Assembly (NCBI GenBank): GCA_963739455.1
Contig: CAVUAK010000001.1
Location: 2,048,001-2,112,000 of the forward strand
Direction of reading: 5' to 3'
DNA: 64,000 nt
DNA from: an uncultured Gemmatimonadales bacterium
GTDB taxonomy: Bacteria; Gemmatimonadota; Gemmatimonadetes; Gemmatimonadales; GWC2-71-9
A program made the translations under genes and the position numbers. Shown one piece after another: positions 1-13,949 of the stretch. How positions within the stretch are numbered: position 1 is the first letter of the stretch; the number at the start of each line of letters is the position of its first letter. The notes under the pieces were generated by a model. It saw only the letters and a program-made list of their open reading frames with translations, was not told the origin of the DNA and made no database searches.

Positions 1-641
1 GGCACCCTCCTTAGCCCACCATCTCACCCACTGCCGGGCCCTCTTACATCCGCTCGGTCTTCACTGACATACGGTTAGCCCTGTGTGACCCGCTGATACC
101 CAATCAGCTATCAGGGTCAGGGGAACCCAACAGGATGCTCGTGGGGTCTGAGCCTGTCTGTGCGGGGCACCAGAAGGGCCTTTGAAGGGGCCTTCGGAGG
201 AGCCTTGGCGGGCTCAGTAGGCTCGATGCGCGCCTAGCTGGGGTTCTTGATAGGGAACCTGCTGAGGACCCCTTGCGGGAATCTTCAGGAAAACGGGCTG
301 AAATCCCCGAAAAACGGTCATTTTCTCGCGATTTCGGGCCGAAATAAGGCATTTTGGGGGTGTCGAAGGGCATTCGGAGGGGCGGTGTCTAGGGACCCCT
401 AGAAATGGATCAGAGCCCGGCTAGGAACCCACTGAAGTCACTGTCACGCGCTCAAGTGGGTCCTGTAGAGCCACTGTGCAGACACAGCGAGCGAGATGAG
501 TGCTTCTATTTCGAGCGAGGTTGACTCAGGACGAACGATCTCTGGCCTAGTTGAGCCGAGTGAGCGTTGAGGATAGATCGTGGCTCAGACTGGCGTAGGC
601 TGGCTAGTGGAAGAGGCATCAATCGGGGCAGGCATCTTGCT

Positions 642-911
642 ATGTCCGAAGGCATGAAAGTGATGAAGCGCCCGAAGAAGAGGCCGGTCCTCTACCACGG
701 AAAACCGTGTCACCGCTGCGGAGGCACCCGCCGGTTCAAGAGCAACCGAAGCTGCACAGTCTGCACGCGGAAGGCTGCGGCGGAAGATGCCAAGCTCTAC
801 CATGTCAGGAAGTTCAACCGCAGGGCGGCTTGGGTGCGGTCGCACAAGGAATTAATGGATCGTCTGGAAGCCCTCTCGAAGACCCTGCCCAGCTACGCGG
901 ATCTGGAGTAG
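642..911 (+). CDS. Small C4 Zn-finger protein (phage-type)
   Basis: YHGKPCHRCGGTRRFKSNRSCTVCTRKA, paralogous to the Zn finger of the HNH ORF at 3688; start uncertain (642/654/663). Confidence 0.7.
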   Translation: MSEGMKVMKRPKKRPVLYHGKPCHRCGGTRRFKSNRSCTVCTRKAAAEDAKLYHVRKFNRRAAWVRSHKELMDRLEALSKTLPSYADLE

Positions 912-1284
912 TAGCACCCTAGTGACTTCATGTAAGGAAATGCGAGTGCGAGTGTAGCATTTAAAGCATTTAATTGCTGCATGTTAGAACACATTGTGTT
1001 GCTCATTATCTGCACAAATGCTCCCTGTAGTGCATAAGGAACTCTCAAAAATCGTCCGATTTGTAACGAAGGGCGCGCCCCGAGGCGCCTTTTTCCCACC
1101 TCGACAGGGCCGGTAGTAGCCCCAGATCCTTGATGTAAGAAATTGCGAGGGCAATGATACAGCGCAAGATGTTTATTAGCTTAATCTTACGGTCAGTCTA
1201 TGTAGTGGAAAATCTGCACAAATGCCACCTGTTTTGCACAAGAGACCGCGAAAAGGTCCGACCGTAGTGCTATGGCGCTACCCG
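908..1284. repeat. Two degenerate ~204-bp-period direct repeats in an AT-rich non-coding region
   Basis: ATGTAAGgAAaTGCGAG 930-946 vs ATGTAAGaAAtTGCGAG 1133-1149; ATCTGCACAAATGC identical at 1008-1021 and 1212-1225; GTAGTAGC and GTCCGA blocks also colinear. Confidence 0.7.
1069..1094 (+). terminator. Possible intrinsic terminator
   Basis: GGGCGC/GCGCCT stem followed by T run. Confidence 0.35.
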
Positions 1285-1711
1285 CAGTCAGGAACTCTTG
1301 AGCCTTCGGTTCTCCTTTGGATGAATACCTCCGACCGTAGTGAGGAAGAGACGCGGTTTGATCTCAACGACTTACGGAAACGTGAAGGGCACGCCAAGGC
1401 ATTCCGCCTAAGCGTCTGTGCTGCGTTGGGGTTGCTGCACTCGTGGTGTCAGGAGTGTATAGCACGACTCATCTGTGCAACCATCCAGCGGCCTGAGAAA
1501 CCCGAAGGGAATCGCCCACCCAATCACAACGACTTAGCCAAGCTGGTTGATCCCTCGTCGGAAATTGCCCTAGCTCCAAGACGTGTCATGCTTTACGAAG
1601 CTCTGCCGGACAGTTTGTGAAGAATGAACAAATAGCTTAGGAACCTTCGGAGGCTCGCCGGGCCCTCCCTTTTATAACCGTTCCCACACTACCGGACTGC
1701 AAGAAGTTGCC

Positions 1712-1735
1712 GACTGGCTGACGCTATAGTGGGCT
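1712..1735 (+). promoter_or_regulatory. Possible T7/SP6-type phage RNAP promoter
   Basis: GCTGACGCTATAG (1717-1729) matches the SP6 core GGTGACACTATAG at 11/13; lies upstream of the + strand operon; single copy. Confidence 0.3.
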
Positions 1736-1871
1736 CTCTGGGTGGTGATAGGCTCCTTCTTCAGTAATCCCCTCAGATACCTCTGAAGGTTCTTGGAGGT
1801 AGTTGGTAGCTCCAGTTCCCCACCAAGTTCCTCAACCAATCCCCTGCAAAGGACCCTGCCATAGGCCCGCC

Positions 1872-3311
1872 ATGACTTCGCTTTTCCTCGACTACCGGTC
1901 CGCTCTCGTGGATCGGGTGCCCCACCTCAGCCTCGAACGCTTGACTGAGATTGGAGGGCAACGGGGACGCCTTCACGCTCAGGCTCGACAGGACGGATTG
2001 ATACGCCTCCTCCTGAGCAACTATGAAGGCACCCGACGAAGTTGGAACTCCGGTACCGACTACCGCGATTCCTGTTTCCCCAAGAAGACCCTTCAGAAGT
2101 ACCTCAAGACCTCCGGCAGTTCCCATCATCAGAAGTTCCTCACGCCACTCTTCGCATTTCATCAGGGGCAACGCGGGTACTCCGCCTCTGCTGGGATGGG
2201 TAAGAGCTATCGCATGCTTCCCCACATCCGCGCTGTGTTGGACGATCTCTACCAAGGCTTTGCTCCGGTTCGGCTGATCGGAAGAGATGGGGAGGAAGTC
2301 TTCCTCAAGGACCTCGCCGGGTTCCCCTTCACACCCACCTGCATGCTGCCCGGCTGCGTCCCGCTCGATGCCGTGGCGCTCCATCGGCGGATTGCGGAGG
2401 TGGAAAGCTGGCAGACAGACACCATTGGGCGACTTGCGAAGGCTGAGATCCTTCAGCGTCTCCGAGTCCTACGGAAGTGGGCTGTATCTGCGGGTGGAAT
2501 TCCGAACGGCTACAGCATGACCTCAACGGGACGAGCTGGTCCCTCAACAGAAGGAGGCCCTCACCTCATCGGCATGTCCCCCGAGGTGCGAACGCTGGTG
2601 TTTGCGGAGACGGATCTCGTGGACTTCGACTTGAAGGCGTCCTTCTGGACCTGTCTCCAGTCCGTGGCGGCACACCTCACGATCAAGACACCCGCTATCT
2701 CAGACTACATCAGCCACCGAGACCAGTTCTTCCTCCCCCGATGGGCGAAACTGCTCAACATGGACGCGGCGGTCTTCAAGCCCGTCGCTACCTCGTGGCT
2801 CCTCGGCGCGCAGATCTCACCCTTCGCAAAGGCCATCAGGGACCTCAACGGGAACCCCTTCACGATCTCCGCAACGCTCCGTAGCGATGACCTCACCGTG
2901 CGTCTACAGAAGCGGATCAGGGCGGAAGCGGCGAAGGTCTTGAACAAGTACGCGGCAGGGCTCCCGAAGGGGACCTCTGGAGGCGTCTTGAATGCAGTCG
3001 GAGCGGAGTTCTTGGGGGACGCTGAGGAAGAGGGTGGGCTCCACTGCCACCTACTCACCGGCTTGGAGCAGTTCGCCATGCGCTCCATAGTCTCGCACAT
3101 CCCCACCCCTACCGCCGTGATCTTCGATGGTGTCATAGCTCCAGCGTTCCCGGTGGAGCATCTCGAAGACGTTGTAAGGATTCAGTCAGAGAAAACCCTC
3201 GGGTTCCCCCTCCGAGTTCGTATCAAGGCATCTCCGTTTGCCGAGCAGTTCGAACGGATGCGCTCTACGCTTCGCTCCTCACTCCCAGCGCGTGAGACAG
3301 CAGCAGCATAG
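1872..3311 (+). CDS. Family-A-related polymerase (TV-Pol-like primase/polymerase domain) with N-terminal putative DNA-binding region
   Basis: Ordered motifs STGR; LVDFDLKAS (motif A-like); FKPVATSWLLG (motif B-like K...G); LTGLEQ; AVIFDGVI (motif C-like hDG). No 3'-5' exonuclease motifs seen. Confidence 0.65.
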   Translation: MTSLFLDYRSALVDRVPHLSLERLTEIGGQRGRLHAQARQDGLIRLLLSNYEGTRRSWNSGTDYRDSCFPKKTLQKYLKTSGSSHHQKFLTPLFAFHQGQRGYSASAGMGKSYRMLPHIRAVLDDLYQGFAPVRLIGRDGEEVFLKDLAGFPFTPTCMLPGCVPLDAVALHRRIAEVESWQTDTIGRLAKAEILQRLRVLRKWAVSAGGIPNGYSMTSTGRAGPSTEGGPHLIGMSPEVRTLVFAETDLVDFDLKASFWTCLQSVAAHLTIKTPAISDYISHRDQFFLPRWAKLLNMDAAVFKPVATSWLLGAQISPFAKAIRDLNGNPFTISATLRSDDLTVRLQKRIRAEAAKVLNKYAAGLPKGTSGGVLNAVGAEFLGDAEEEGGLHCHLLTGLEQFAMRSIVSHIPTPTAVIFDGVIAPAFPVEHLEDVVRIQSEKTLGFPLRVRIKASPFAEQFERMRSTLRSSLPARETAAA

Positions 3312-3385
3312 CTGGCCCACTACACCCGACGCGGACCTTACATCCGCAGCACTTCACCCCACATCATCAACCTCTCAATAGGACT

Positions 3386-3589
3386 ATGCCCACCACGAAC
3401 AGTCTCCAGACCCGCCGCCGTCCCGCCTCGAACGCTCGCTATGCCTCCATCGGCTTCATGCGTGAAGATCTCGAACGCTTCGAACGCCTCCGCAACATGC
3501 TGACTAGGCAGTGGAATACCAGTGTTCCCCCGAGCCGCTCCGAGGTGGTCACGCTCGCTCTCGAAGCCCTCGAAGAGAAGCTCAAGTAG
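3386..3589 (+). CDS. Ribbon-helix-helix DNA-binding protein
   Basis: 67 aa; strand YASIGF, helix REDLERFERLRNML, helix SRSEVVTLALEAL; AGGA upstream. Confidence 0.65.
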   Translation: MPTTNSLQTRRRPASNARYASIGFMREDLERFERLRNMLTRQWNTSVPPSRSEVVTLALEALEEKLK

Positions 3590-3687
3590 TTCACTCCGCA
3601 GTTTCCTCAAGCAGTACCCCACCCCGCTCCACCGTCGCCCCTCCTTGCCGCGCCCTGCGGCTTCATCGCGACAGAAAAACCGCAGTC

Positions 3688-4143
3688 ATGTCTACTACGA
3701 CCTCCAACGTCCGGCCTCTCACGGTCACCTACGAGGGCTGTCCCTGCCGCAACTGTGGCACGACGACGAAGTACCGCTCGAACCGCATGTGTGTCGTCTG
3801 CACGGCTCGTCGCAACAGGACCGAACCACTGCGCGCCGCAAAGTTGGAATGGACCGAAAACAATCCCGACCGCTACGCGGCACTCGCGGGCAAGCACAAC
3901 GCCTCGCGCCGGTATCCGGGCTGTGTCGCCCCTGACTTCGACCTTGAGGCTACGGTCCCATTCTACCAGCTAGCCCGAGAACTCACGCGCACGACGGGTC
4001 TTCGCTTCGAGTGTGACCACATCATCCCACTGTGCGAAGGCGCAATCCACGATTGGACCAACCTTCAGGTGCTTCGCGTTGACGAGCACCAGCGGAAGAC
4101 CGCGACAGAACACCCACGCTCACGCAAGGAAAGTGCAGCATGA
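3688..4143 (+). CDS. HNH endonuclease with N-terminal C4 Zn finger
   Basis: CPCRNC...SNRMCVVC and ECDHIIPL...HDWTNLQVL...H. Confidence 0.85.
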   Translation: MSTTTSNVRPLTVTYEGCPCRNCGTTTKYRSNRMCVVCTARRNRTEPLRAAKLEWTENNPDRYAALAGKHNASRRYPGCVAPDFDLEATVPFYQLARELTRTTGLRFECDHIIPLCEGAIHDWTNLQVLRVDEHQRKTATEHPRSRKESAA

Positions 4144-4268
4144 AGAACCCCAAGAAAACCCCACGCGGTACCCCACGAGCCTACTGGAGCCTTGACCGGA
4201 TTGTGGCGAAGGTCATGCACGGCTTCGTGGATCATGGCAAGTACGCCTACCTCGAAAACCCGAAATGA
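4140..4268 (+). CDS. 42-aa microprotein MKNPKKTPRGTPRAYWSLDRIVAKVMHGFVDHGKYAYLENPK
   Basis: ATGA overlap with HNH stop, AAGGA upstream, ATGA overlap with next ORF; below ORF-track cutoff. Confidence 0.55.
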   Translation: MKNPKKTPRGTPRAYWSLDRIVAKVMHGFVDHGKYAYLENPK

Positions 4269-4411
4269 ACTTCTCGCACCATGCAGACTACCCGCGTCCG
4301 ATCATCGGTAAGCGATGCGGGAAGTGTCGAGGCTGCTTCTGGGAGGTCACTACCACCGGACGGTCGTGCATTGTCTGCACCCGGAAAGCATCCCGTGCTA
4401 TCGAGCGATGA
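4265..4411 (+). CDS. 48-aa Zn-finger microprotein (…GKRCGKCRGCFWEVTTTGRSCIVCTRKASRAIER)
   Basis: ATGA-coupled; motif GKxCxxC…RSCxVCTRKA shared with ORF 642-911. Confidence 0.6.
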   Translation: MNFSHHADYPRPIIGKRCGKCRGCFWEVTTTGRSCIVCTRKASRAIER

Positions 4412-4592
4412 TGCTTCGATCTGTTGCCCACGCTGCAAGCGACTGGTTCGCTACATCGGGAGTAATGGCATGTGCGGCGCGTGCTGGCAAGCGACGGTAC
4501 CTGTAGAGGTCTCCGAGGAAGAGCATGACGCTATCCAACATGCAGCCGACCAAGAGGCTGCTCGACACAATGGAGTGAGACAGACCAAATGA
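4395..4592 (+). CDS. Small Zn-finger protein (CPRC…SNGMCGAC)
   Basis: C-terminal part of track ORF 4281-4592; GTG start with GGAAAG upstream; ATGA overlap with next ORF. Confidence 0.5.
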   Translation: MLSSDDASICCPRCKRLVRYIGSNGMCGACWQATVPVEVSEEEHDAIQHAADQEAARHNGVRQTK

Positions 4593-4768
4593 CCAAGATG
4601 TTCTTCAGTGGCTATAGCGAGAAAGAGCATACCTGCTCGCGCTGCGGAGTTCACGGCAGCTTCGGCCAACATGGGCTCTGCTTTAGGTGTTCACTCCCAT
4701 CATCCCCCCACAACATCAACGAGAATGACGACATCAGAACCCGATTCCGTAGGTATCGCTCCGACTAG
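4589..4768 (+). CDS. 59-aa Zn-finger microprotein (CSRC…GLCFRC)
   Basis: ATGA-coupled; MTKMFFSGYSEKEHTCSRCGVHGSFGQHGLCFRC…; below ORF-track cutoff. Confidence 0.5.
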   Translation: MTKMFFSGYSEKEHTCSRCGVHGSFGQHGLCFRCSLPSSPHNINENDDIRTRFRRYRSD

Positions 4769-4870
4769 GGGCGTACTGTCTGACAAGTCCCCTTCCGTAA
4801 CCCTCTCGGCGGCGCTTGTGCTCCTTCAGGCCGTCCGCATCGACACAAAGCTGTCGCATCTCTTCAAGCC

Positions 4871-5695
4871 ATGAACATCAGTGATCTCCTGAGAACGCCG
4901 TCGAAGCCGCGTACTCGCGGAGTCCGACAGTGCTCCATTCCGGGCTGCACCAACCTCGGGAAGCGAAACGTCTACTCTCCCCTCTGTGGTAAGCACATTC
5001 GGCGGAAGGAACTGAACGGGCACCCGGAGCAGGTAACTGCGAGGCTCAAGGATGCAAAGCCCTACATCGACACTGTGAAGAGGCTACTGCGAAGGCTCCC
5101 CCACGAGAACCGCATCAAGCTTGAGGGCGCGATGCATCGTAAGTGGCTCAATTACCGAGACTGGCTACATGACGTGGAGTCAGGGCTAGAGCCGAGCTAT
5201 GCCACCCGGCGCTGTGAGCGGGCCGCAACTGAGCTTCTCCGCGTCTTCGATAAGTGCGACCCTGTGACCGGCTTCACTCTTCTCGCCGCCGTCTTCCTTT
5301 GGGACGCAAGCGAGCCGGGGCGGTTTAAAGCGCCTTACGGGTTGGAGTACTCGCTAGTCAACCTGTTCACTCATCTCGGCCCAAAGCACTCGGCCCGCAC
5401 AGTCTGCCGTCGTAATGGCGTTGTCGAGACCCGGACCGAGTACCGAGTTGCTCCCAAGAGTGTGCGCCTTCACATGGCGGATTGGCTCACCGCGTTTGCG
5501 ACTCCCTTTGCGGCACGGATGCTTGCCCTGTCGCGCTCTGAGTCGGAGGTGAAGAGGCAAGAGCAGGAGCTTCTTCTCACGCTCTTCTCGCCCGTCAAAG
5601 CTGAACTGGACGCACGGAAAGCTCTTGTAGAGGAGCGCCTGCACATTGCCCGAGAGATCCGCGCTGAAGAATTGAGCCAGACCACAGCGGGTTGA
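4871..5695 (+). CDS. Hypothetical 274-aa protein with N-terminal C3H Zn-binding motif
   Basis: CSIPGC…SPLCGKH…NGHP; long clean ORF in operon direction. Confidence 0.75.
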   Translation: MNISDLLRTPSKPRTRGVRQCSIPGCTNLGKRNVYSPLCGKHIRRKELNGHPEQVTARLKDAKPYIDTVKRLLRRLPHENRIKLEGAMHRKWLNYRDWLHDVESGLEPSYATRRCERAATELLRVFDKCDPVTGFTLLAAVFLWDASEPGRFKAPYGLEYSLVNLFTHLGPKHSARTVCRRNGVVETRTEYRVAPKSVRLHMADWLTAFATPFAARMLALSRSESEVKRQEQELLLTLFSPVKAELDARKALVEERLHIAREIRAEELSQTTAG

Positions 5696-5912
5696 AGCGG
5701 CCCCCCGTGCAGGGGACAAGCCAATGCGACAACTCAGTGTGGGCAGGAGGAAGAGAGTCGAAGCCGCAACATGGCAACGCCCTGCGGGGACCCATGAGGC
5801 GCCAACCGAGGCTCTCCCCTCCGCTGGTTTTCATTGTTGTACCTCATCGAACCTCCGAATCACTCGGAGATCATTCATTCAACCGCCGCAGTACACAAAG
5901 GAATCAATTCCA

Positions 5913-6224
5913 ATGATCGACCACACCGAACGCCGCACCGCTATGTACGGGAATGCAACCACGCACTCCGTGGTTGAGATGATGCAGAATCCGCTTTATG
6001 AAACGAGCGCGACTTACCGCGCAGAGGTTGCTGCAAAGATCGCTGCCGAGGATGCGGCACAGTCCACCATGCCGGGAACTGAGATCGTACCAGAGGTGAC
6101 CGAAGGTCTGCGGCCCTTTGCCGATCAGTTCGAACTGAACGCGGCGATGCAGTCCGAGCGATACCGCCGGAGCCCCGAGTACCGGGCGAACGTGGCGGCA
6201 CGGCTCTCCATCTCCAACGTCTAA
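5913..6224 (+). CDS. Mini capsid-scaffold-like protein (two T7 gp9-type C-terminal motifs)
   Basis: C-terminus FADQFELNAAMQSERYRRSPEYRANVAARLSISNV resembles the T7 scaffold C-terminus (F.D..E…AM…RYR….YR..V…SN); second internal copy MMQNPLYETSATYRAEVAAKI; AAGGA RBS. Confidence 0.7.
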   Translation: MIDHTERRTAMYGNATTHSVVEMMQNPLYETSATYRAEVAAKIAAEDAAQSTMPGTEIVPEVTEGLRPFADQFELNAAMQSERYRRSPEYRANVAARLSISNV

Positions 6225-6492
6225 CCCAACGCCGGTAGGCAGAGAGGTGGTGAAGACTTATTCCTAACATCAGCAAGAGCGGGGCGGTCGTTCCAATGCC
6301 CCAGCCGGTAGATGCCACGCCGTACAAGCAGACCTCTGAGGTCCTTGGCGTCCGAAGCACCAAGTAGTCCCTCGCCTCCCGGAGCAATCCGGGGGGTTCG
6401 GTCCCATGCCTTCCTAGGCAGCGACCTGTTTGACGATTCGTTGATCCCCTCCACCCACTTTCCTCCATACACTTCCTCAACCGGACCTCACC

Positions 6493-6753
6493 ATGACCCC
6501 TCAACTGCATATCGCGCTCATCAGTCGCGATTGGGCCGTACGCAGCATGATGCTCCGACGGATTCCCGTTGAGGACCTCCGGGAGGGACTAGGAGCAGTG
6601 CTTCCAGATGAAATATTGTTCAGCCTACAAGACGAATTGCGGAGACGAGGAGAACGTTGGGAGGTTCCATTGACGCTCGCGGACGATCCGTCCGTTCCGG
6701 CGCACAAGGTACCGTATCCGCACCCTGAGCCAAACCGAGGCATTCGCCGATAG
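6493..6753 (+). CDS. Hypothetical protein
   Basis: 86-aa ORF with GGAC upstream, converging on next gene. Confidence 0.4.
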   Translation: MTPQLHIALISRDWAVRSMMLRRIPVEDLREGLGAVLPDEILFSLQDELRRRGERWEVPLTLADDPSVPAHKVPYPHPEPNRGIRR

Positions 6754-6758
6754 AACTG

Positions 6759-8852
6759 CTACTCCTTTGCGCGGCTGCGACTCGGAGAGGCGCGCTTTAT
6801 GGTGTTCACCTTCTTTGCCGACTTCACGCTCGGTGCCTTCTGAACAGTCTTAGCCTTCGGTGCCTTCGTCGCCGGATTTGCTGCGGGTGCGATGGTCTGT
6901 GGCAGATACTTGTCATGTTCCCTTTTTAGGAACTCGATCCCTGACGCCTTTGTCGCGCTAAGTTCGAGCTTTTCCTTGAAAAACTCTAAGCGCGCTCGCG
7001 CATCGTTGATGACATCTGCCCAAGTCTTCACATAGACCTTACCGCGACCGTCATAAAGCAGTGTCGGATAGGTCTGTGCCTCAACTTCAACATGCAAGGC
7101 TGAGGACAATGCCCAGAATTCCCAAGTGGTTTCAGCTTTGGGAAATGCAGGCGATGACATGAGGGCCTGCGCGTAACGCATTACCTGCGTTGTTGCATTT
7201 AGGTCGATCTTCTCGCTTGGCCGCTTCAGTTCGACAACCAAGTGATGGCGCTTCGGCGAGGAATTGAGCTTGAGGATCTTCGAAAACATGAGATCAAGAG
7301 TCAAGTTCATGTTTGGGTTTACGGAGCCGTCAAGCGCCAAGATGTCAATGTCGTCGCGCTTACCGCACTCTTGACGCACAACCGTGTCCAGCTTTTGGTC
7401 GTCAGCCGTGATGTTCAGTTCCTCGCCAAAGAGCCACGTATGCGCGGCGACGATGCGATGAAGCTGCGTGCGCTCCTTCACAACGTTTTTGTACTCTGTG
7501 CCGTAGGCGAGGGCGTGTAGGCCCTCTAGGAAGTCAAGGCGATCGGCTACGAGTGAGGAAGCGGAAATGATTGCCGACAGCGAGCTTCGGCTCAACAGCT
7601 TGCTCAGCTCCTCCTGTTTTGCCGGAGAAAGCCCAAGCACTTCAATGAGGATGTGTTGCAGGTCCTCAGAGCCCGATTCAATCGCACTACGGAGAAGCCG
7701 AAAAGTGAGCTTCTTTGACGCGTCATCGGCAGCAGCAATGGCCGGGGAGGCATCAACAACGTTGATCGCCAAGATGTCAAAAACCCGGCGTTCCGCTTCC
7801 TCAATGATTGTAACGGGCGCATTCTCAAACGGATAGACTTTATCAGCCTTCCACTCTTCGACGATGGAGAGTCGCTTTTCTTGCTTTAGGTTGGTCACAT
7901 AGTCCCGGACAGACTGCCGCGCCGCATTGGCCAAAGCCGTAACGTCGTCGTTCAGGTCGTCGAGGATCAGGGTACCGCTTGTCGCCGCTTCTGAAATCGC
8001 TGGCGAAGACAAATGAGCGGTGAGGTTTAGAGAGCCAGTTCCAACGTCGAGGGTGACGTGATGCAGCGTGTTGCCTGCGCTGTCGCAAAGGTAGAGATAC
8101 TTCTGGATCGCCGCGTCAGAATTCCACTCGATAATGTCCAGCGTGCCGTGAATGTCCTTCTTGTCGTTTACGGAGGCAACAACCTGAACTGTCGAACTCC
8201 GTGCTATGAGGGCATTGGCGTCGAGCTGTTCACCCGCAATCGTGATAACCGTATCTGGGTACTTGCGAAGGAAGAGCGCGAATGTACGAGCGAGGACGGC
8301 GCGGCTCTCCGCAGAGTGCAAGTCCGGGAGATTCTTGTTCATACCGGTAACTGTGACTTCGGTGCCGGTGTCTGTCCGATCATTCTCGGGGACTGCGTCC
8401 GAGATTTCGAAAGAGACGGTGCTAGTGCCCAACTTGCCGCGTAGGGTGACGGTCTCTAAGCCCTTTGCACCGTCGAAGGTTGATTTCCATTCGACATTTG
8501 GGCCAAGTGCGAATGCGCGAAGACGTCCCTGACCGCGCCTGCCATGCACGATGCGACCCTTGCCCGTAACAGTCGCATTTCTCTTTTTCGAACCCCCTAG
8601 CAAGCTGAACCCCTCCGCAGCCTCAAGGGCAGACATTCCGGTCCCATTATCCGCTACTACAATGCTCTCTGTGCCTGTCAGAAGCGTCTGTGTTACGCTG
8701 ACACTTACAGCCGTTGCATCAGCGTCAAGACTGTTCCAGATAAGTTCTGAGAGCGCAGCAAGTGGATTTCCACGCGTAAGGCTGTGGAGATGGTCGCCCG
8801 CGAGTGCCACCGGCAGCGGATGCATCTTGGGAGCGGGGAGCGTGGTGGCCAT
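6759..8852 (-). CDS. GHKL (HATPase_c/MORC-like) ATPase fused to C-terminal PD-(D/E)xK-like nuclease; probable defence gene
   Basis: ELIWNSLDA, DNGTGM, GRRGQGR GHKL motifs; DLMF…VVELKRP nuclease motif; start MATTLPAPK (track ORF N-extension is antisense to comM). Confidence 0.8.
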   Translation of the reverse strand: MATTLPAPKMHPLPVALAGDHLHSLTRGNPLAALSELIWNSLDADATAVSVSVTQTLLTGTESIVVADNGTGMSALEAAEGFSLLGGSKKRNATVTGKGRIVHGRRGQGRLRAFALGPNVEWKSTFDGAKGLETVTLRGKLGTSTVSFEISDAVPENDRTDTGTEVTVTGMNKNLPDLHSAESRAVLARTFALFLRKYPDTVITIAGEQLDANALIARSSTVQVVASVNDKKDIHGTLDIIEWNSDAAIQKYLYLCDSAGNTLHHVTLDVGTGSLNLTAHLSSPAISEAATSGTLILDDLNDDVTALANAARQSVRDYVTNLKQEKRLSIVEEWKADKVYPFENAPVTIIEEAERRVFDILAINVVDASPAIAAADDASKKLTFRLLRSAIESGSEDLQHILIEVLGLSPAKQEELSKLLSRSSLSAIISASSLVADRLDFLEGLHALAYGTEYKNVVKERTQLHRIVAAHTWLFGEELNITADDQKLDTVVRQECGKRDDIDILALDGSVNPNMNLTLDLMFSKILKLNSSPKRHHLVVELKRPSEKIDLNATTQVMRYAQALMSSPAFPKAETTWEFWALSSALHVEVEAQTYPTLLYDGRGKVYVKTWADVINDARARLEFFKEKLELSATKASGIEFLKREHDKYLPQTIAPAANPATKAPKAKTVQKAPSVKSAKKVNTIKRASPSRSRAKE

Positions 8853-8951
8853 CGGATGACTCCAGAGAGAAGGCAGCAGCCACCCCAAACTAACCCGAAC
8901 AGTGGCCGAAGATAGGGTGGCGGAGTTGGTGCTTGTCCTTAGGTCCCCAAG

Positions 8952-9863
8952 ATGCTGTTGATCGGCCCTCCCGGGTCGGGCAAGACCATGCTCGCGCGCC
9001 GCCTGCCCGGCATCCTCCCGGCGATGTCGCTGGACGAAGCGCTCGAGACCACGAAGGTGCACAGTGTTGCCGGCCTGCTCGGCGCGGGCCGCGCGCTCTG
9101 CACCACCAGGCCATTCCGCGCGCCTCACCACACCATCAGCGACGCTGGTCTCGTGGGTGGCGGCACGCCCCCGCGCCCCGGAGAAGTGAGCCTGGCGCAC
9201 GGTGGCGTGCTCTTCCTCGATGAGCTCCCGGAGTTCAGGTCGAGCGTGCTCGAAGTGCTGCGCCAGCCGCTGGAGGATGGCACCGTCACCTTGAGCCGCG
9301 CGGCGATGAGCCTCACATATCCTGCGCGCATCATGCTGGCGGCAGCGATGAATCCATGCCCGTGTGGCTACGCCGGCGATCCGGCGCACGCCTGTCTCTG
9401 TCCTCCGCAGGCGGTGCAGCGCTACCGTGGCCGTGTGTCGGGTCCACTGCTTGACCGCATCGACATTCACCTCGAGGTGCCCGCCATTCCCTACCGGGAC
9501 CTGACCGGGAGCCAGCCGGCCGAGCCGAGCCGCAGCATCGCGGAGCGGGTCGAGAACGCGCGCGTCTCGCCCAGCGCGAACGGTTCGCGGCCATTCCCGG
9601 CATGCATGCCAATGCGCACATGGGTGCCAGGGAAGTGCGTCGCTTCTGCGCACTCAACTCCGGAGTCGGAGGCGATCCTGCGATCCGCGATCACCCGGCT
9701 GGGCCTGTCGGCCCGCGCGTACCATCGCGTGCTCAAGATCGCGCGGACCATCGCCGACCTCGCGGGCGCCGATGCGCTCGCCGTCGCCCATGTCGCGGAG
9801 GCGATCCAGTACCGGAGCCTCGACCGGAGCCAGCCGGCGCTTGCGCCGGCGGGAGGGCGCTGA
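8952..9863 (+). pseudogene. comM: 3' portion of ComM/YifB Mg-chelatase-like AAA ATPase, interrupted by the element
   Basis: [50 protein letters not shown]-terminal half missing; two compensating frameshifts ~9570-9660. Confidence 0.9.
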
Positions 9864-9939
9864 ACCAGCGGCTCCGAAGCCCGCCCCTCCCGCCACACCG
9901 CCGGACTCGCTTTCTTCCGTCATCCCAAGCCCACATCCC

Positions 9940-11242
9940 ATGAACCTGCGCGCGTATGTCGTGGCAACAGGCGCCCTTCTCGTCCTGGGCCCTCGAGTCG
10001 CTCATTCCCAGAACATCGTCACGGCGGCCCCGCCCGCCGGCGATGTCGCGCAGGCCTTCAAGCGGCTGGCGCCCGCGGTGGTGCGCATCGAGGTGCGGGA
10101 GACCGGCGCGGTGGCGCTGAGCAGTGTCGGGTCCGGCTTCTTCGCCGCTCCCTCGGGCCGGATCATCACCAACTATCACGTGATCTCGCGACTGGTGAAC
10201 GAGCCCGAGCGTCATCGGGGCCGCGCCACCTGGGGCAGCGATACGGTCGACATCCAGGTGCTGGCGGTCGATGTGGTGCACGACCTCGCCGTCCTCGATG
10301 CCCCGGACGCGCACGCTGCCGCCATGCTGACGCCGGTCACCGCCACCTGCTGAAGGGTGATCGCGTTCTCGCGATGGGCCACCCACGCGACCTCGGCCTG
10401 AGCATCGTCGAGGGCACCTACAACGGGCAGGTCGAGCATGTGCTGACGCCGCGGTTGCACTTCACCGGACCGCTCAATCCCGGCATGAGCGGCGGGCCGG
10501 CGGTGACGCCCGACGGGGCGCTGGTGGGCGTCAACGTGGCGACGATGGGTGAGGAACTCGCGTTCCTGGTGCCGGCGGAGTTCGTGACCCGGTTGCTGGA
10601 CCGGCTTCCGGCAACGGTCCCGGCGGCCGAGGAGCTTGCGGCGGGACATGGCCACGCGGCTCGGACAGATGGGCATGGATGCACTCGACGCCCTGTTCGT
10701 CCCCGGCGCGCCAACGGTGCAGCTCGGCCCGTATCTCGCCCCAACCGAACCGTCCGCCGCATTTCAGTGCTGGGGTGATGCACGCGAGCCCAAGGATGCC
10801 GCATACCGGGTCGTGGTGCACCGATGCAGCACCGACGAATCGGTGTTCCTCTCCGAGGACCTGAGCGCCGGCCTGGTCTATTTCTCCCACCAGCTCCTGG
10901 ATGGCGCCGCGCTGAGTCGCCTTCGACTGCTCACCGCGAGCGAGCAGGCCTTCAACGACAAGCTCACGTTCGATGGCACCGCGCGAGAGACCACCCGCTT
11001 CCGCTGCACCACCGGGAACGTGCGCACGGCCACGATGACCTTCCGCGCGGAGGTGTGTGCCCGGCGACTCAAGAGCCTGTACGGGCTCTATGAGGCGGTG
11101 ATGCGGGCCACGCCCCTCGGCGCGACCGCGCAGAGCCTGGTCACCACGCTCACGATGTCCGGCGTGCGCTTCGACCTCATCCAGCGCACGGTCGCACGGT
11201 ACCTCGCATCGATCACGCTCGTCACCGGAGGTCGCGGAATGA
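9940..11242 (+). CDS. Secreted trypsin-like (S1) serine protease; frameshifted in read
   Basis: Signal peptide, GSGFF…TNYHV, DLAVL, NPGMSGGP split across ORFs 9772/10374/10636. Confidence 0.75.
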
Positions 11243-12230: not shown

Positions 12231-13949
12231 CTACCAGCCGGCGGCACCCCCGGCCACCCTCGGGTCGGGCACTCCCTCGAGTCCCTGCGGCGTCACCCGG
12301 ATGGCATTCACCGTTCCCATGAACTCCGGTTCCTTCCACAGCTCGTAGCCCATCGCCTTCAGCTCGGCGCGCACCTGCGGGCTCAGGCCCGCTGGTTCCC
12401 ACCCCACGACATCGGGCAGGCCATTGTGGTGGACGCGCGGCGCGGCAACGGCCTGTGCCAGCGTCATCTGCTGGTCCACCACGTTCGATGATCACCTCGA
12501 ACACCGAGGAGATGATCGTGGCACCGCCGGGCGAGCCGAGGACGATCGACAACTGACCGTCGCGATCGAGCACGATGGTCGGTGTCATGGAGGAGAGCAT
12601 GCGCTTTCCCGGCTCGATGCTGTTGGCCAGGCCCTCCTGCCGGATACCCATCGCGTTCACCACTCCTGGCTGCGTGGTGAAGTCGTCCATCTCGTTGTTG
12701 AGCAGGAATCCGGCCCCAGCCACCACGAATCCGGAGCCGAATCCGGTGTTGATCGTCGTGGTGATGGCGGCCGCGTTGCCGGCACTGTCCACCACCGAGA
12801 AGTGGGTCGTGTGCTGCCCCTCGGCGAGCGCCGAGCCCTGGAGCGGCGTGGCGCGATCGGCCGCGATGCTGCTGCGCTGCGTGGTGGCGTAGGTCTTCGA
12901 CGTCAGCTCGGCCAGCGGCATGTTCACGAAGGCCGGGTCGCCGAGCAGGCTGTTCCGGTCGAGGAAGGCGCGTCGCAGTGCCTCGACCTGGAGGTGTACC
13001 AGCGCCGCGGTGCCCGATGCGGGGAGGTCATATCCCTCCAGGATGTTGAGGGCCTGAATGAGCGTGGCGCCACCGCCCGACACCGGCGGCATGGTGATGA
13101 CCCGCCATCCCCGATAGGTGGTCTCGAGCGGCGTCCGCCAGAGTGCCTGGTAGCGCGCGAGGTCCTCGCGCGTGATGAGGCCGCCGCCCAGCCTGGACCT
13201 GCTTCGCGATGAGGTCCGCGAAGCTGCCGCGATAGAAAACGTCAGCGCCGCTGTCCGCGATGAGCCCGAGCGTGTGCGCAAGGTCTGCCTGGTACAGCGT
13301 GTCGCCGGTGCGCCAGGCGCGTCCGTCGCCGCGGACGAAGATCGCCGTTGAAGAAGGGAACGGAGCAAAGCTGCTCCGCACTCCCGGCGAGCCATTCCGC
13401 GCGCAGGCTGTCGAGTACGTGAGCCTTCGCGAGTGCCACCGCCGGAAGGACCACCTCGCGCCAGGGAAGGGCGCCGAAGCGCTGGTGCATGGCCCAGAGC
13501 CCCGCCACCGATCCGGGCACCCCACCGGCACGGGCGCCCACGATCGACGCGTTGGTGACGTTGCCTGCGGAATCCACGTACATGTTGCGCGACGCCGCGC
13601 CCGGTGCGGCCTCGCGGAAGTCGAGGGCGAACACCTGCCCGTCGTGCTGGCGATACACGAGGAAGCCACCGCCGCCAATGTTGCCGGCGGCAGGATTCAC
13701 GACTGCCTGCGCGAAGGCAAGCGCCACGATGGCGTCGATCGCATTGCCGCCGCGTCGAAGAATCTCTGCCCCGACGTCGCTCGACGCTGGATTGTCGGAC
13801 ACGGCCATCACGTGCGGTTCGACAAGGGGCGGTGCCACATCGGCGAAGCGCCAGCGTTCGGCAGGCGCGTCCGCGCCGCCGCAACCGGCAGCCAACACGA
13901 CAATGAGGGCAGGCCCGGCCAACCGAACCAAGGCGGCAACACGGTCCAT
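12231..13949 (-). CDS. ggt: Gamma-glutamyltransferase; frameshifted in read
   Basis: GGNAIDA, DFREAAP, TTHFSVVD, LLNNEMDDF, KRMLSSMTPT, DPR. Confidence 0.9.

Follow-up and report, generated by a model that had tools for sequence, protein, structure and literature searches.

The window considered here is a stretch of 64,000 nucleotides (nt) from a contig of an uncultured Gemmatimonadales bacterium (genome G000), and its positions 1..8951 are the right 8.95 kb of an element integrated in the host gene comM. The whole element measures 15.95 kb (G000:C1:2041004-2056951), the remaining 7 kb lying upstream of the window. From its gene content it is probably a satellite, here in integrated form, that parasitises a T7-like podophage of Autographiviridae type, and a member of a satellite family. 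The elements of this family, 11-16 kb long, draw on one list of T7 parts: a short scaffold, gp16, a gp2.5 single-stranded DNA-binding protein (SSB), T7 RNA polymerase (RNAP) and T7-like promoters. A satellite of a T7-like phage had been proposed in the first-pass annotation of the window. The proposal gains support from the upstream 7 kb, which holds a recombinase and cargo and no T7-like morphogenesis module, and from related elements with recurring genes in other genomes and metagenomes.

The element in comM and its mini-scaffold

The features that define the element and carry the argument are as follows.

C1:2041004-2041020 (upstream 7 kb): left inverted repeat
L001:13053-14714, plus strand: large serine recombinase, 553 residues, first gene of the element (PF00239, PF07508, PF13408)
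1872..3311, plus strand: polymerase, 479 residues, placed by fold match in the family A / T7-RNAP superfamily
5913..6224, plus strand: mini-scaffold, 103 residues, with a clear ribosome-binding site (PF05396, E 1.9e-10; phrog_1052, E 1.9e-14)
8935..8951: right terminal inverted repeat, the recombinase arm of the attachment site (att)
8952..9863, plus strand: 3' half of comM/YifB, in the host flank (TIGR00368, E 4.6e-97)

The island stands out by its low G+C content, 52-63% per 500 nt to about position 9000 and 66-72% in the host beyond; in the genome context the low-GC stretch begins about 7 kb upstream of the window. The 5' half of comM ends immediately before C1:2041004. The terminal inverted repeats, 17 bp at both ends, are identical at 16 of 17 nt, and the usual comM reading is regained if the crossover falls midway between them, a position read by eye from the comM alignment that leaves the exact bases unfixed. 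A comM match is present in 19 of 20 relatives, and the gene is intact at the insertion motif in all nine relative loci examined. Integration in comM, claimed in the first-pass annotation, is thus borne out by both gene halves, a serine recombinase and inverted repeats.

The 24 open reading frames (ORFs) of the whole element were compared with Pfam and PHROGs, and 22 of them with NCBIfam. None matched a capsid, portal, terminase, tail, lysis, helicase or RNAP family, and the earlier statement that capsid, portal, tail and RNAP are missing holds for all 24. Family matches were obtained for the recombinase, AlbA_2, DUF559, zinc ribbon, HNH, scaffold motif and GHKL protein. BLAST and hidden Markov model (HMM) comparison of the element with T7-like loci gave the same negative result for capsid, portal, terminase, tail and RNAP, and a capsid HMM was negative on the elements, with 20 hits in the control. 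As expected of a phage satellite in the general sense, the element is integrated, bounded by att sites and equipped with a recombinase, and a full virion module is missing. It is not an intact T7-like prophage, which would have capsid, portal, terminase, tail and replication modules.

The mini-scaffold consists of the C-terminal motif of the T7-type scaffold, about 30 residues, twice in tandem and without the body of about 190 residues. PF05396 matches it in two stretches (41.9 bits against a cut-off of 27.1), and both repeats align with full phage scaffolds at positions 200-232 of 233, the comparison set being nine full scaffolds (230-241 residues) from T7-like viral contigs. The C-terminal motif of PF05396 is present; the full-length body and the gene position between portal and capsid are not. 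In P22, SaPI/80alpha (SaPI, Staphylococcus aureus pathogenicity island) and T7, the scaffold C-terminus binds the coat protein. No homologue of the mini-scaffold was found by word-based search, by tblastn against GenBank phages and plasmids or in scans of viral contigs. Among 401 genomes of the phylum, PF05396 rises above its cut-off only in G000; this sample included the relative G038, where the scaffold-like protein scores below the cut-off.

A compact polymerase

The 479-residue polymerase has no match in Pfam, PHROGs or NCBIfam. It belongs to a large unnamed family, with 508 representatives at E <= 1e-3 and 38 at 1e-30. In the Atlas it falls with 30 unnamed clusters scoring up to 0.97, DNA_pol_A reaching just 0.76. 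Sequence searches of the PDB for homologues returned nothing useful, and a word-based search found one relative.

A model built from 51 sequences (predicted local confidence, pLDDT, 92) shows thumb, palm and fingers in residues 152-460, with catalytic D253 and D419. The best fold match is pol nu (Z 11.6, root-mean-square deviation 5.3, 270 residues aligned), followed by Klenow (Z 11.2), mitochondrial RNAP (Z 9.4, residues 2-452) and T7 RNAP (Z 8.2); KlenTaq is matched at E 1.4e-6. Near-invariant residues are R221 (51/51) and D253, K303 and D419 (50/51 each). The fold and the two catalytic Asp place the protein in the family A / T7-RNAP superfamily. The earlier description as polA-like is right as to the family A fold and wrong if taken to mean a T7 gp5/PolA replicase: the protein is a compact, exonuclease-less relative of these enzymes.

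As far as the available parts of the two sources describe them, TV-Pol (PMC2579912) and CcPol of SCCmec (10.1101/2022.12.02.518924) share with it an exonuclease-less family A core, a hairpin Arg, two Asp and a setting in recombinase elements. The features that mark TV-Pol, an invariant hairpin Arg, two Asp and no exonuclease, are all found here. The RxxxK motif is not, there being no conserved Arg four residues before K303 in the 51 sequences. The steric-gate position is mostly His, motif B lacks its Tyr, the window element has no linked helicase or MP-like SSB, and the protein has an N-terminal domain of its own. The polymerase is called TV-Pol-like here because it resembles TV-Pol and CcPol yet fails one TV-Pol feature. 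The same sources, in the portions available, report that TV-Pol and CcPol are predicted or shown to prime DNA.

A single-subunit RNAP of T7 type has about 880 residues, a specificity loop and PF00940. At 479 residues the polymerase has no PF00940 match, and the 13-37 residues at the location of the T7 specificity loop leave no room for it. Residues 1-155 are confidently folded in the model (pLDDT 85). Their similarity to winged helices is weak (Z 3.6-5.3, no match at E <= 0.001), and the domain might be winged-helix-like. As to function, primase or initiator is the role we would predict, with modest assurance; a promoter-specific RNA polymerase is possible and less probable, and any other role is unlikely.

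Related elements and alternative explanations

The recombinase was found in 5 of 336 genomes of the order, always within comM, and T7-type genes accompany it in four of the five (G000, G308, G453 and G038). Four genomes have the polymerase in a sample of 401 from the phylum, and four again in a sample of 401 from the order, G000 counted. With a degenerate polymerase pattern, true loci made up one of three genome hits and eight of nine metagenome hits, with none in viral contigs; the pattern hits L024, L025 and L029 were due to chance and were dropped. An integrase lies near the polymerase in 11 of 13 loci, and T7-type genes in 5 of 13 (the window, G308, L027, L031 and L033), a count that rests on the ORFs chosen for scanning. 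The related elements are listed below.

G308: comM element with compact polymerase and gp16-type protein (phrog_6651, E 1.8e-45)
L027: compact polymerase, gp16 and 132-residue scaffold
L031: compact polymerase, start of gp16 and two SSB
L033: compact polymerase, gp16, SSB and 159-residue scaffold
G453 (L111:6490-20000 + L112:1-2380): complete 14.9-kb comM element with T7 RNAP (E 1.4e-214), SSB and 129-residue scaffold
G038 (L106:1-9400 + L101:1-4100): comM element split by an assembly gap, with T7 RNAP, gp16 and a tail-fibre-like gene
G244 (L114:790-8780): 8-kb comM element with the same recombinase, a ParB-like protein, resolvase and methylase

Seven elements, the window element included, carry T7 parts: a short scaffold in five, gp16 in five, SSB in three, the compact polymerase in five and T7 RNAP in two. 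No head or packaging module was found in the six related ones. Both ends are defined in five elements, which measure 15.95 (window), 11.4, 14.9, 13.7 and 14.9 kb; the terminal inverted repeats are short or absent in G453, G038 and G244, and in G244 the recombinase frame runs on from the comM 5' half. The true T7 RNAP of G453 and G038 occupies the slot that the compact polymerase has in G308. Scaffold matches in the relatives are weaker than in the window (phrog_1052, E 3e-8 to 1.6e-3). The scaffold-like protein of G038 has 212 residues and a duplicated C-terminal motif, and no replication or portal genes lie between RNAP and scaffold in that element. A four-gene module is common to G453 and L033 (scaffold 46%, SSB 37%, two small ORFs 39% and 50% identity) and sits under different integrases and polymerases.

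T7-like promoters are duplicated in the same two elements, as exact copies of 24 nt in G453 and 19 nt in L033 (0/100 shuffles each). One L033 copy stands 79 nt before the polymerase gene and the other before the scaffold operon; a site in L034 resembles them. The promoter alignment was selected on a shared core, so its invariant columns arise by construction. G453, with its own T7-type RNAP and two exact 24-nt promoters, offers a directly testable RNAP-promoter pair. Elsewhere in these elements (L033:15470-15520 and, in G453, L111 about 13400-13900), four or five short TATAG-containing repeats adjoin a shared resolvase gene and are possibly a res site or iterons.

The gp16 proteins are nearest to internal virion protein D of roseophages, pelagiphages and cyanopodophages (23-33% identity). 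In a comparison with every plus-strand ORF from 62 T7-like viral loci, the gp16 of the related elements was the only shared protein, and none of the 62 loci encodes the polymerase. The PF05396/phrog_1052 and phrog_6651 matches tie scaffold and gp16 to their Autographiviridae counterparts gp9 and gp16, whereas the scaffold is trimmed to its C-terminal motif, doubled in the window element, and the genes lie outside any morphogenesis operon. In a tree of 50 sequences the element-borne gp16 proteins (n=4) group together with support 80/92. A 967-residue gp16-like gene at a contig end in G314 (L102:15520-18725) was excluded from the tree by the coverage filter.

Several observations weigh against a satellite. 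The polymerase was found in no viral contig, GenBank phage or PLSDB plasmid, where it might be expected if the DNA is packaged, and a tblastn search with a polymerase homologue against GenBank phages and plasmids gave no match. Eight of the 13 polymerase loci show no T7 gene, three of them being 2-4-kb contigs and the others G084, G089, L026, L030 and L035; one of the five comM elements, G244, has neither polymerase nor T7 gene. No T7 gene recurs in every one of the seven elements, and in the window element the scaffold piece is the sole T7 part, with no gp16, SSB, small terminase or helicase. The gp16 group is unstarred and has long branches, in a tree whose phages may omit the true helper lineage. 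No T7-type capsid, portal, RNAP, SSB or gp16 that would betray a helper was found elsewhere in G000, a genome 84% complete in which the controls of two of the searches matched nowhere. Finally, the SP6-like promoter core reported earlier upstream of the operon is weak: it is a single site with an 11/13 match to a consensus, and such a site arises in 7-11% of 200 Markov shuffles.

Among other explanations, the one that survives best, itself unlikely, is that the elements are independent remnants of temperate T7-like prophages that have lost most genes, the scaffold piece being a deletion scar. Temperate T7-like phages with integrases are known among pelagiphages, roseophages and cyanophages. 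The retained T7 genes vary between elements, the nearest annotated relatives of gp16 sit in podophages of 37-47 kb, and G038, with its assembly gap, has its genes for RNAP, scaffold, gp16 and tail fibre in a phage-like order. However, deletion alone does not give a duplication, and the C-terminal motif is duplicated in both the window and G038 proteins. The kept genes are full-length open frames (gp16 of 1193-1231 residues), and all their neighbours (capsid, portal, tail tubes, gp14/15) are missing altogether; T7-like phages have not yielded the polymerase, and the same module recurs at different sites with integrases of the serine and the tyrosine type.

Less probable again is a self-replicating defence island in which the mini-scaffold, and gp16 in relatives, would poison T7-like assembly, the island itself being unpackaged and spread by transformation or generalised transduction. 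Defence-like cargo is rich in the window element and its relatives (GHKL nuclease, AlbA_2, DUF559; AbiJ/PDC-S32, methylases), and the absence from the viral contigs scanned would fit. Sizes nevertheless cluster at 11-16 kb, as in satellites, and a 1200-residue ejection protein, tail fibre, SSB, RNAP and phage promoters would suit replication and delivery of the element's own DNA better than defence alone. That these are replicative integrative elements of TV-Pol type with incidental T7-like cargo is very improbable, even though integrase-bearing TV-Pol elements have been proposed (in the part of PMC2579912 available) and of the 13 polymerase loci 11 have an integrase nearby and 8 show no T7 gene. 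T7 genes in 5 of 13 loci, taken from three T7 modules, and two sisters with T7 RNAP in the slot are too specific for random cargo, and three of the eight negative loci are contigs of 2-4 kb.

Cargo, known satellites and a possible mechanism

The remaining features of the element are as follows.

Upstream 7 kb: four ORFs without family match
L001:17189-18130, plus strand, upstream 7 kb: AlbA_2/Schlafen protein
L001:18529-19116, minus strand, upstream 7 kb: DUF559-like nuclease
Upstream 7 kb, minus strand: one more ORF
567..911, plus strand: small zinc-ribbon protein with two Cys pairs (phrog_15231, E 2.4e-6; phrog_23777, E 2.7e-5)
908..1308 (908-1103 + 1113-1308): imperfect tandem duplication, non-coding, 48% GC, 127 of 190 aligned bases identical
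1717..1729, plus strand: single promoter-like core ending TATAG, 150 nt before the polymerase start
3386..3589, plus strand: 67-residue ORF, ribbon-helix-helix-like by eye, no match in Pfam, PHROGs or NCBIfam
3688..4143, plus strand: zinc ribbon and HNH endonuclease, 151 residues (PF01844, E 4.4e-4, slightly under cut-off; phrog_1035, E 6.5e-10)
4140..4874, plus strand: chain of five short overlapping ORFs, three with Cys pairs, weak family matches
4871..5695, plus strand: 274-residue ORF with an N-terminal Cys/His cluster, directly before the mini-scaffold
6493..6753, plus strand: 86-residue ORF, no family match
6759..8852, minus strand (convergent): GHKL-ATPase protein, 697 residues (PF13589, E 2.3e-16; phrog_6203, E 8.4e-74)

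These matches confirm the HNH protein, the mini T7 scaffold and the convergent GHKL protein of the first-pass annotation; its ribbon-helix-helix protein found no family match. The zinc-finger microproteins it described have evident Cys pairs in sequence, but a clear PHROG match was obtained for 567-911 alone, whose domain is that of the N-terminus of the HNH protein and whose real start is perhaps downstream of 567. The GHKL protein also matches PADLOC REase_II (E 1.6e-10) and, in its N-terminus only and below cut-off, NF050001 (E 3e-22); it may be restriction-enzyme-like defence cargo. A word search of 5.8 billion proteins returned no homologue of the 274-residue ORF, which has none in Pfam or PHROGs either and is a candidate packaging or interference gene.

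The 908-1308 duplication scores 149, against 72 +/- 8 in shuffles (maximum 106 of 200), and has no match in Rfam; it is a candidate replication origin or packaging/terminal-repeat-like signal. Several imperfect repeats of 70-170 bp also lie upstream of the polymerase gene in L026 (L026:7918-8550), a small tRNA-linked element without T7 genes. Scans for sigma-70 promoters and terminators stayed at chance level, and the 1717-1729 site has little in common with the other promoters beyond the core. In the host flank, apparent frameshifts (window 9500-10780) in the comM 3' half at about 9570 and a protease gene at about 10350 are probably long-read indel errors.

The element resembles phage-inducible chromosomal islands (PICI/SaPI) and P4-like satellites, as these are described in the available parts of PMC10085698 and PMC9618062, in having an integrase, a gene for replication, a candidate protein for capsid remodelling, cargo of defence type and a size of about one third of the helper genome. 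It differs in its serine recombinase into comM, its T7-type parts and its presumed podophage helper, and AlpA/MerR/Stl, primase-helicase, small terminase, Sid/Psu and CpmAB have no match in the window element. The core genes of PICI, according to the accessible portion of PMC10085698, are an AlpA/MerR/Stl regulator, a primase-replicase, a small terminase and a capsid morphogenesis gene, and none of these families is among the 24 ORFs. The capsid, portal and terminases that mark capsid-forming PICI (cfPICI) are absent, and the alpha primase-helicase, Sid, Psu and delta of P4-like satellites gave no match. The PICI-like elements (PLE) of Vibrio cholerae, parasites of a lytic phage, also use a serine recombinase, and their capsid remodelling is reported to depend on a satellite-encoded scaffold-like protein (PMC10945586). 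Unlike PLE, the present element has another host and helper, and its scaffold derives from the C-terminus of a helper-type scaffold. PLE gene families (core capR, repA and others) had no match in general libraries. The earlier claim of a gene set unlike P4, PICI and PLE accordingly holds for the first two and, for PLE, amounts to this lack of a match.

In 2006 Chen and Schneider reportedly described small islands that combine an integrase with T7-like promoters and for which a response to T7-like phages was proposed (Nucleic Acids Research 34:1133). T7 islands are cited in the part of PMC2189734 available. The duplicated T7-like promoters of G453 and L033 recall these islands; the present family brings a polymerase or RNAP of its own, along with a scaffold piece, SSB and gp16. 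The tandem T7-like promoters reportedly typical of the islands are not found in the window element, which has one weak site. In the literature searched, with few subscription papers within reach, no satellites with T7 scaffold pieces, gp16 or such a polymerase are described, and the elements are most likely an undescribed group parasitising T7-like viruses.

A satellite of this kind might work as follows. On helper infection the element would excise and comM would be restored. The N-terminal domain of the polymerase would bind the nearby 908-1308 duplication, and the polymerase would prime replication there. Alternatively it could transcribe the operon, a role considered because two relatives have a true T7 RNAP in its place. 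T7 relies on its RNAP for replication, packaging and DNA entry alike, so either activity would account for the interchangeability of the two enzymes. Both motifs of the mini-scaffold would bind the helper coat in competition with the full scaffold, and the two arms of the protein may cross-link coat subunits over a shorter distance than the helper scaffold bridges. Smaller or mis-assembled heads would result, favouring the satellite genome at about one third of a 40-45-kb helper. Once replicated, the element would enter helper heads; while integrated, it would also carry its defence cargo. A bolder version with two devices not reported before, in which a bivalent mini-scaffold resizes T7-type heads, the 480-residue polymerase replaces T7 RNAP and reads T7-like promoters through a winged helix, and gp16 of the relatives controls DNA delivery in a new satellite family, is doubtful.

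T7 is the model podophage, yet no satellite with assembly or ejection parts of T7-like virions was found in the literature searched. If the satellite reading is true, it would point to a large unnamed polymerase family, open to direct assays for primase or minimal RNA polymerase activity; as an RNA polymerase, the 480-residue enzyme would be roughly half as large as the single-subunit ones known. On the same condition a protein of 100 residues would be a testable means to resize or sabotage T7-type heads, and satellites may supply their own DNA-ejection protein.

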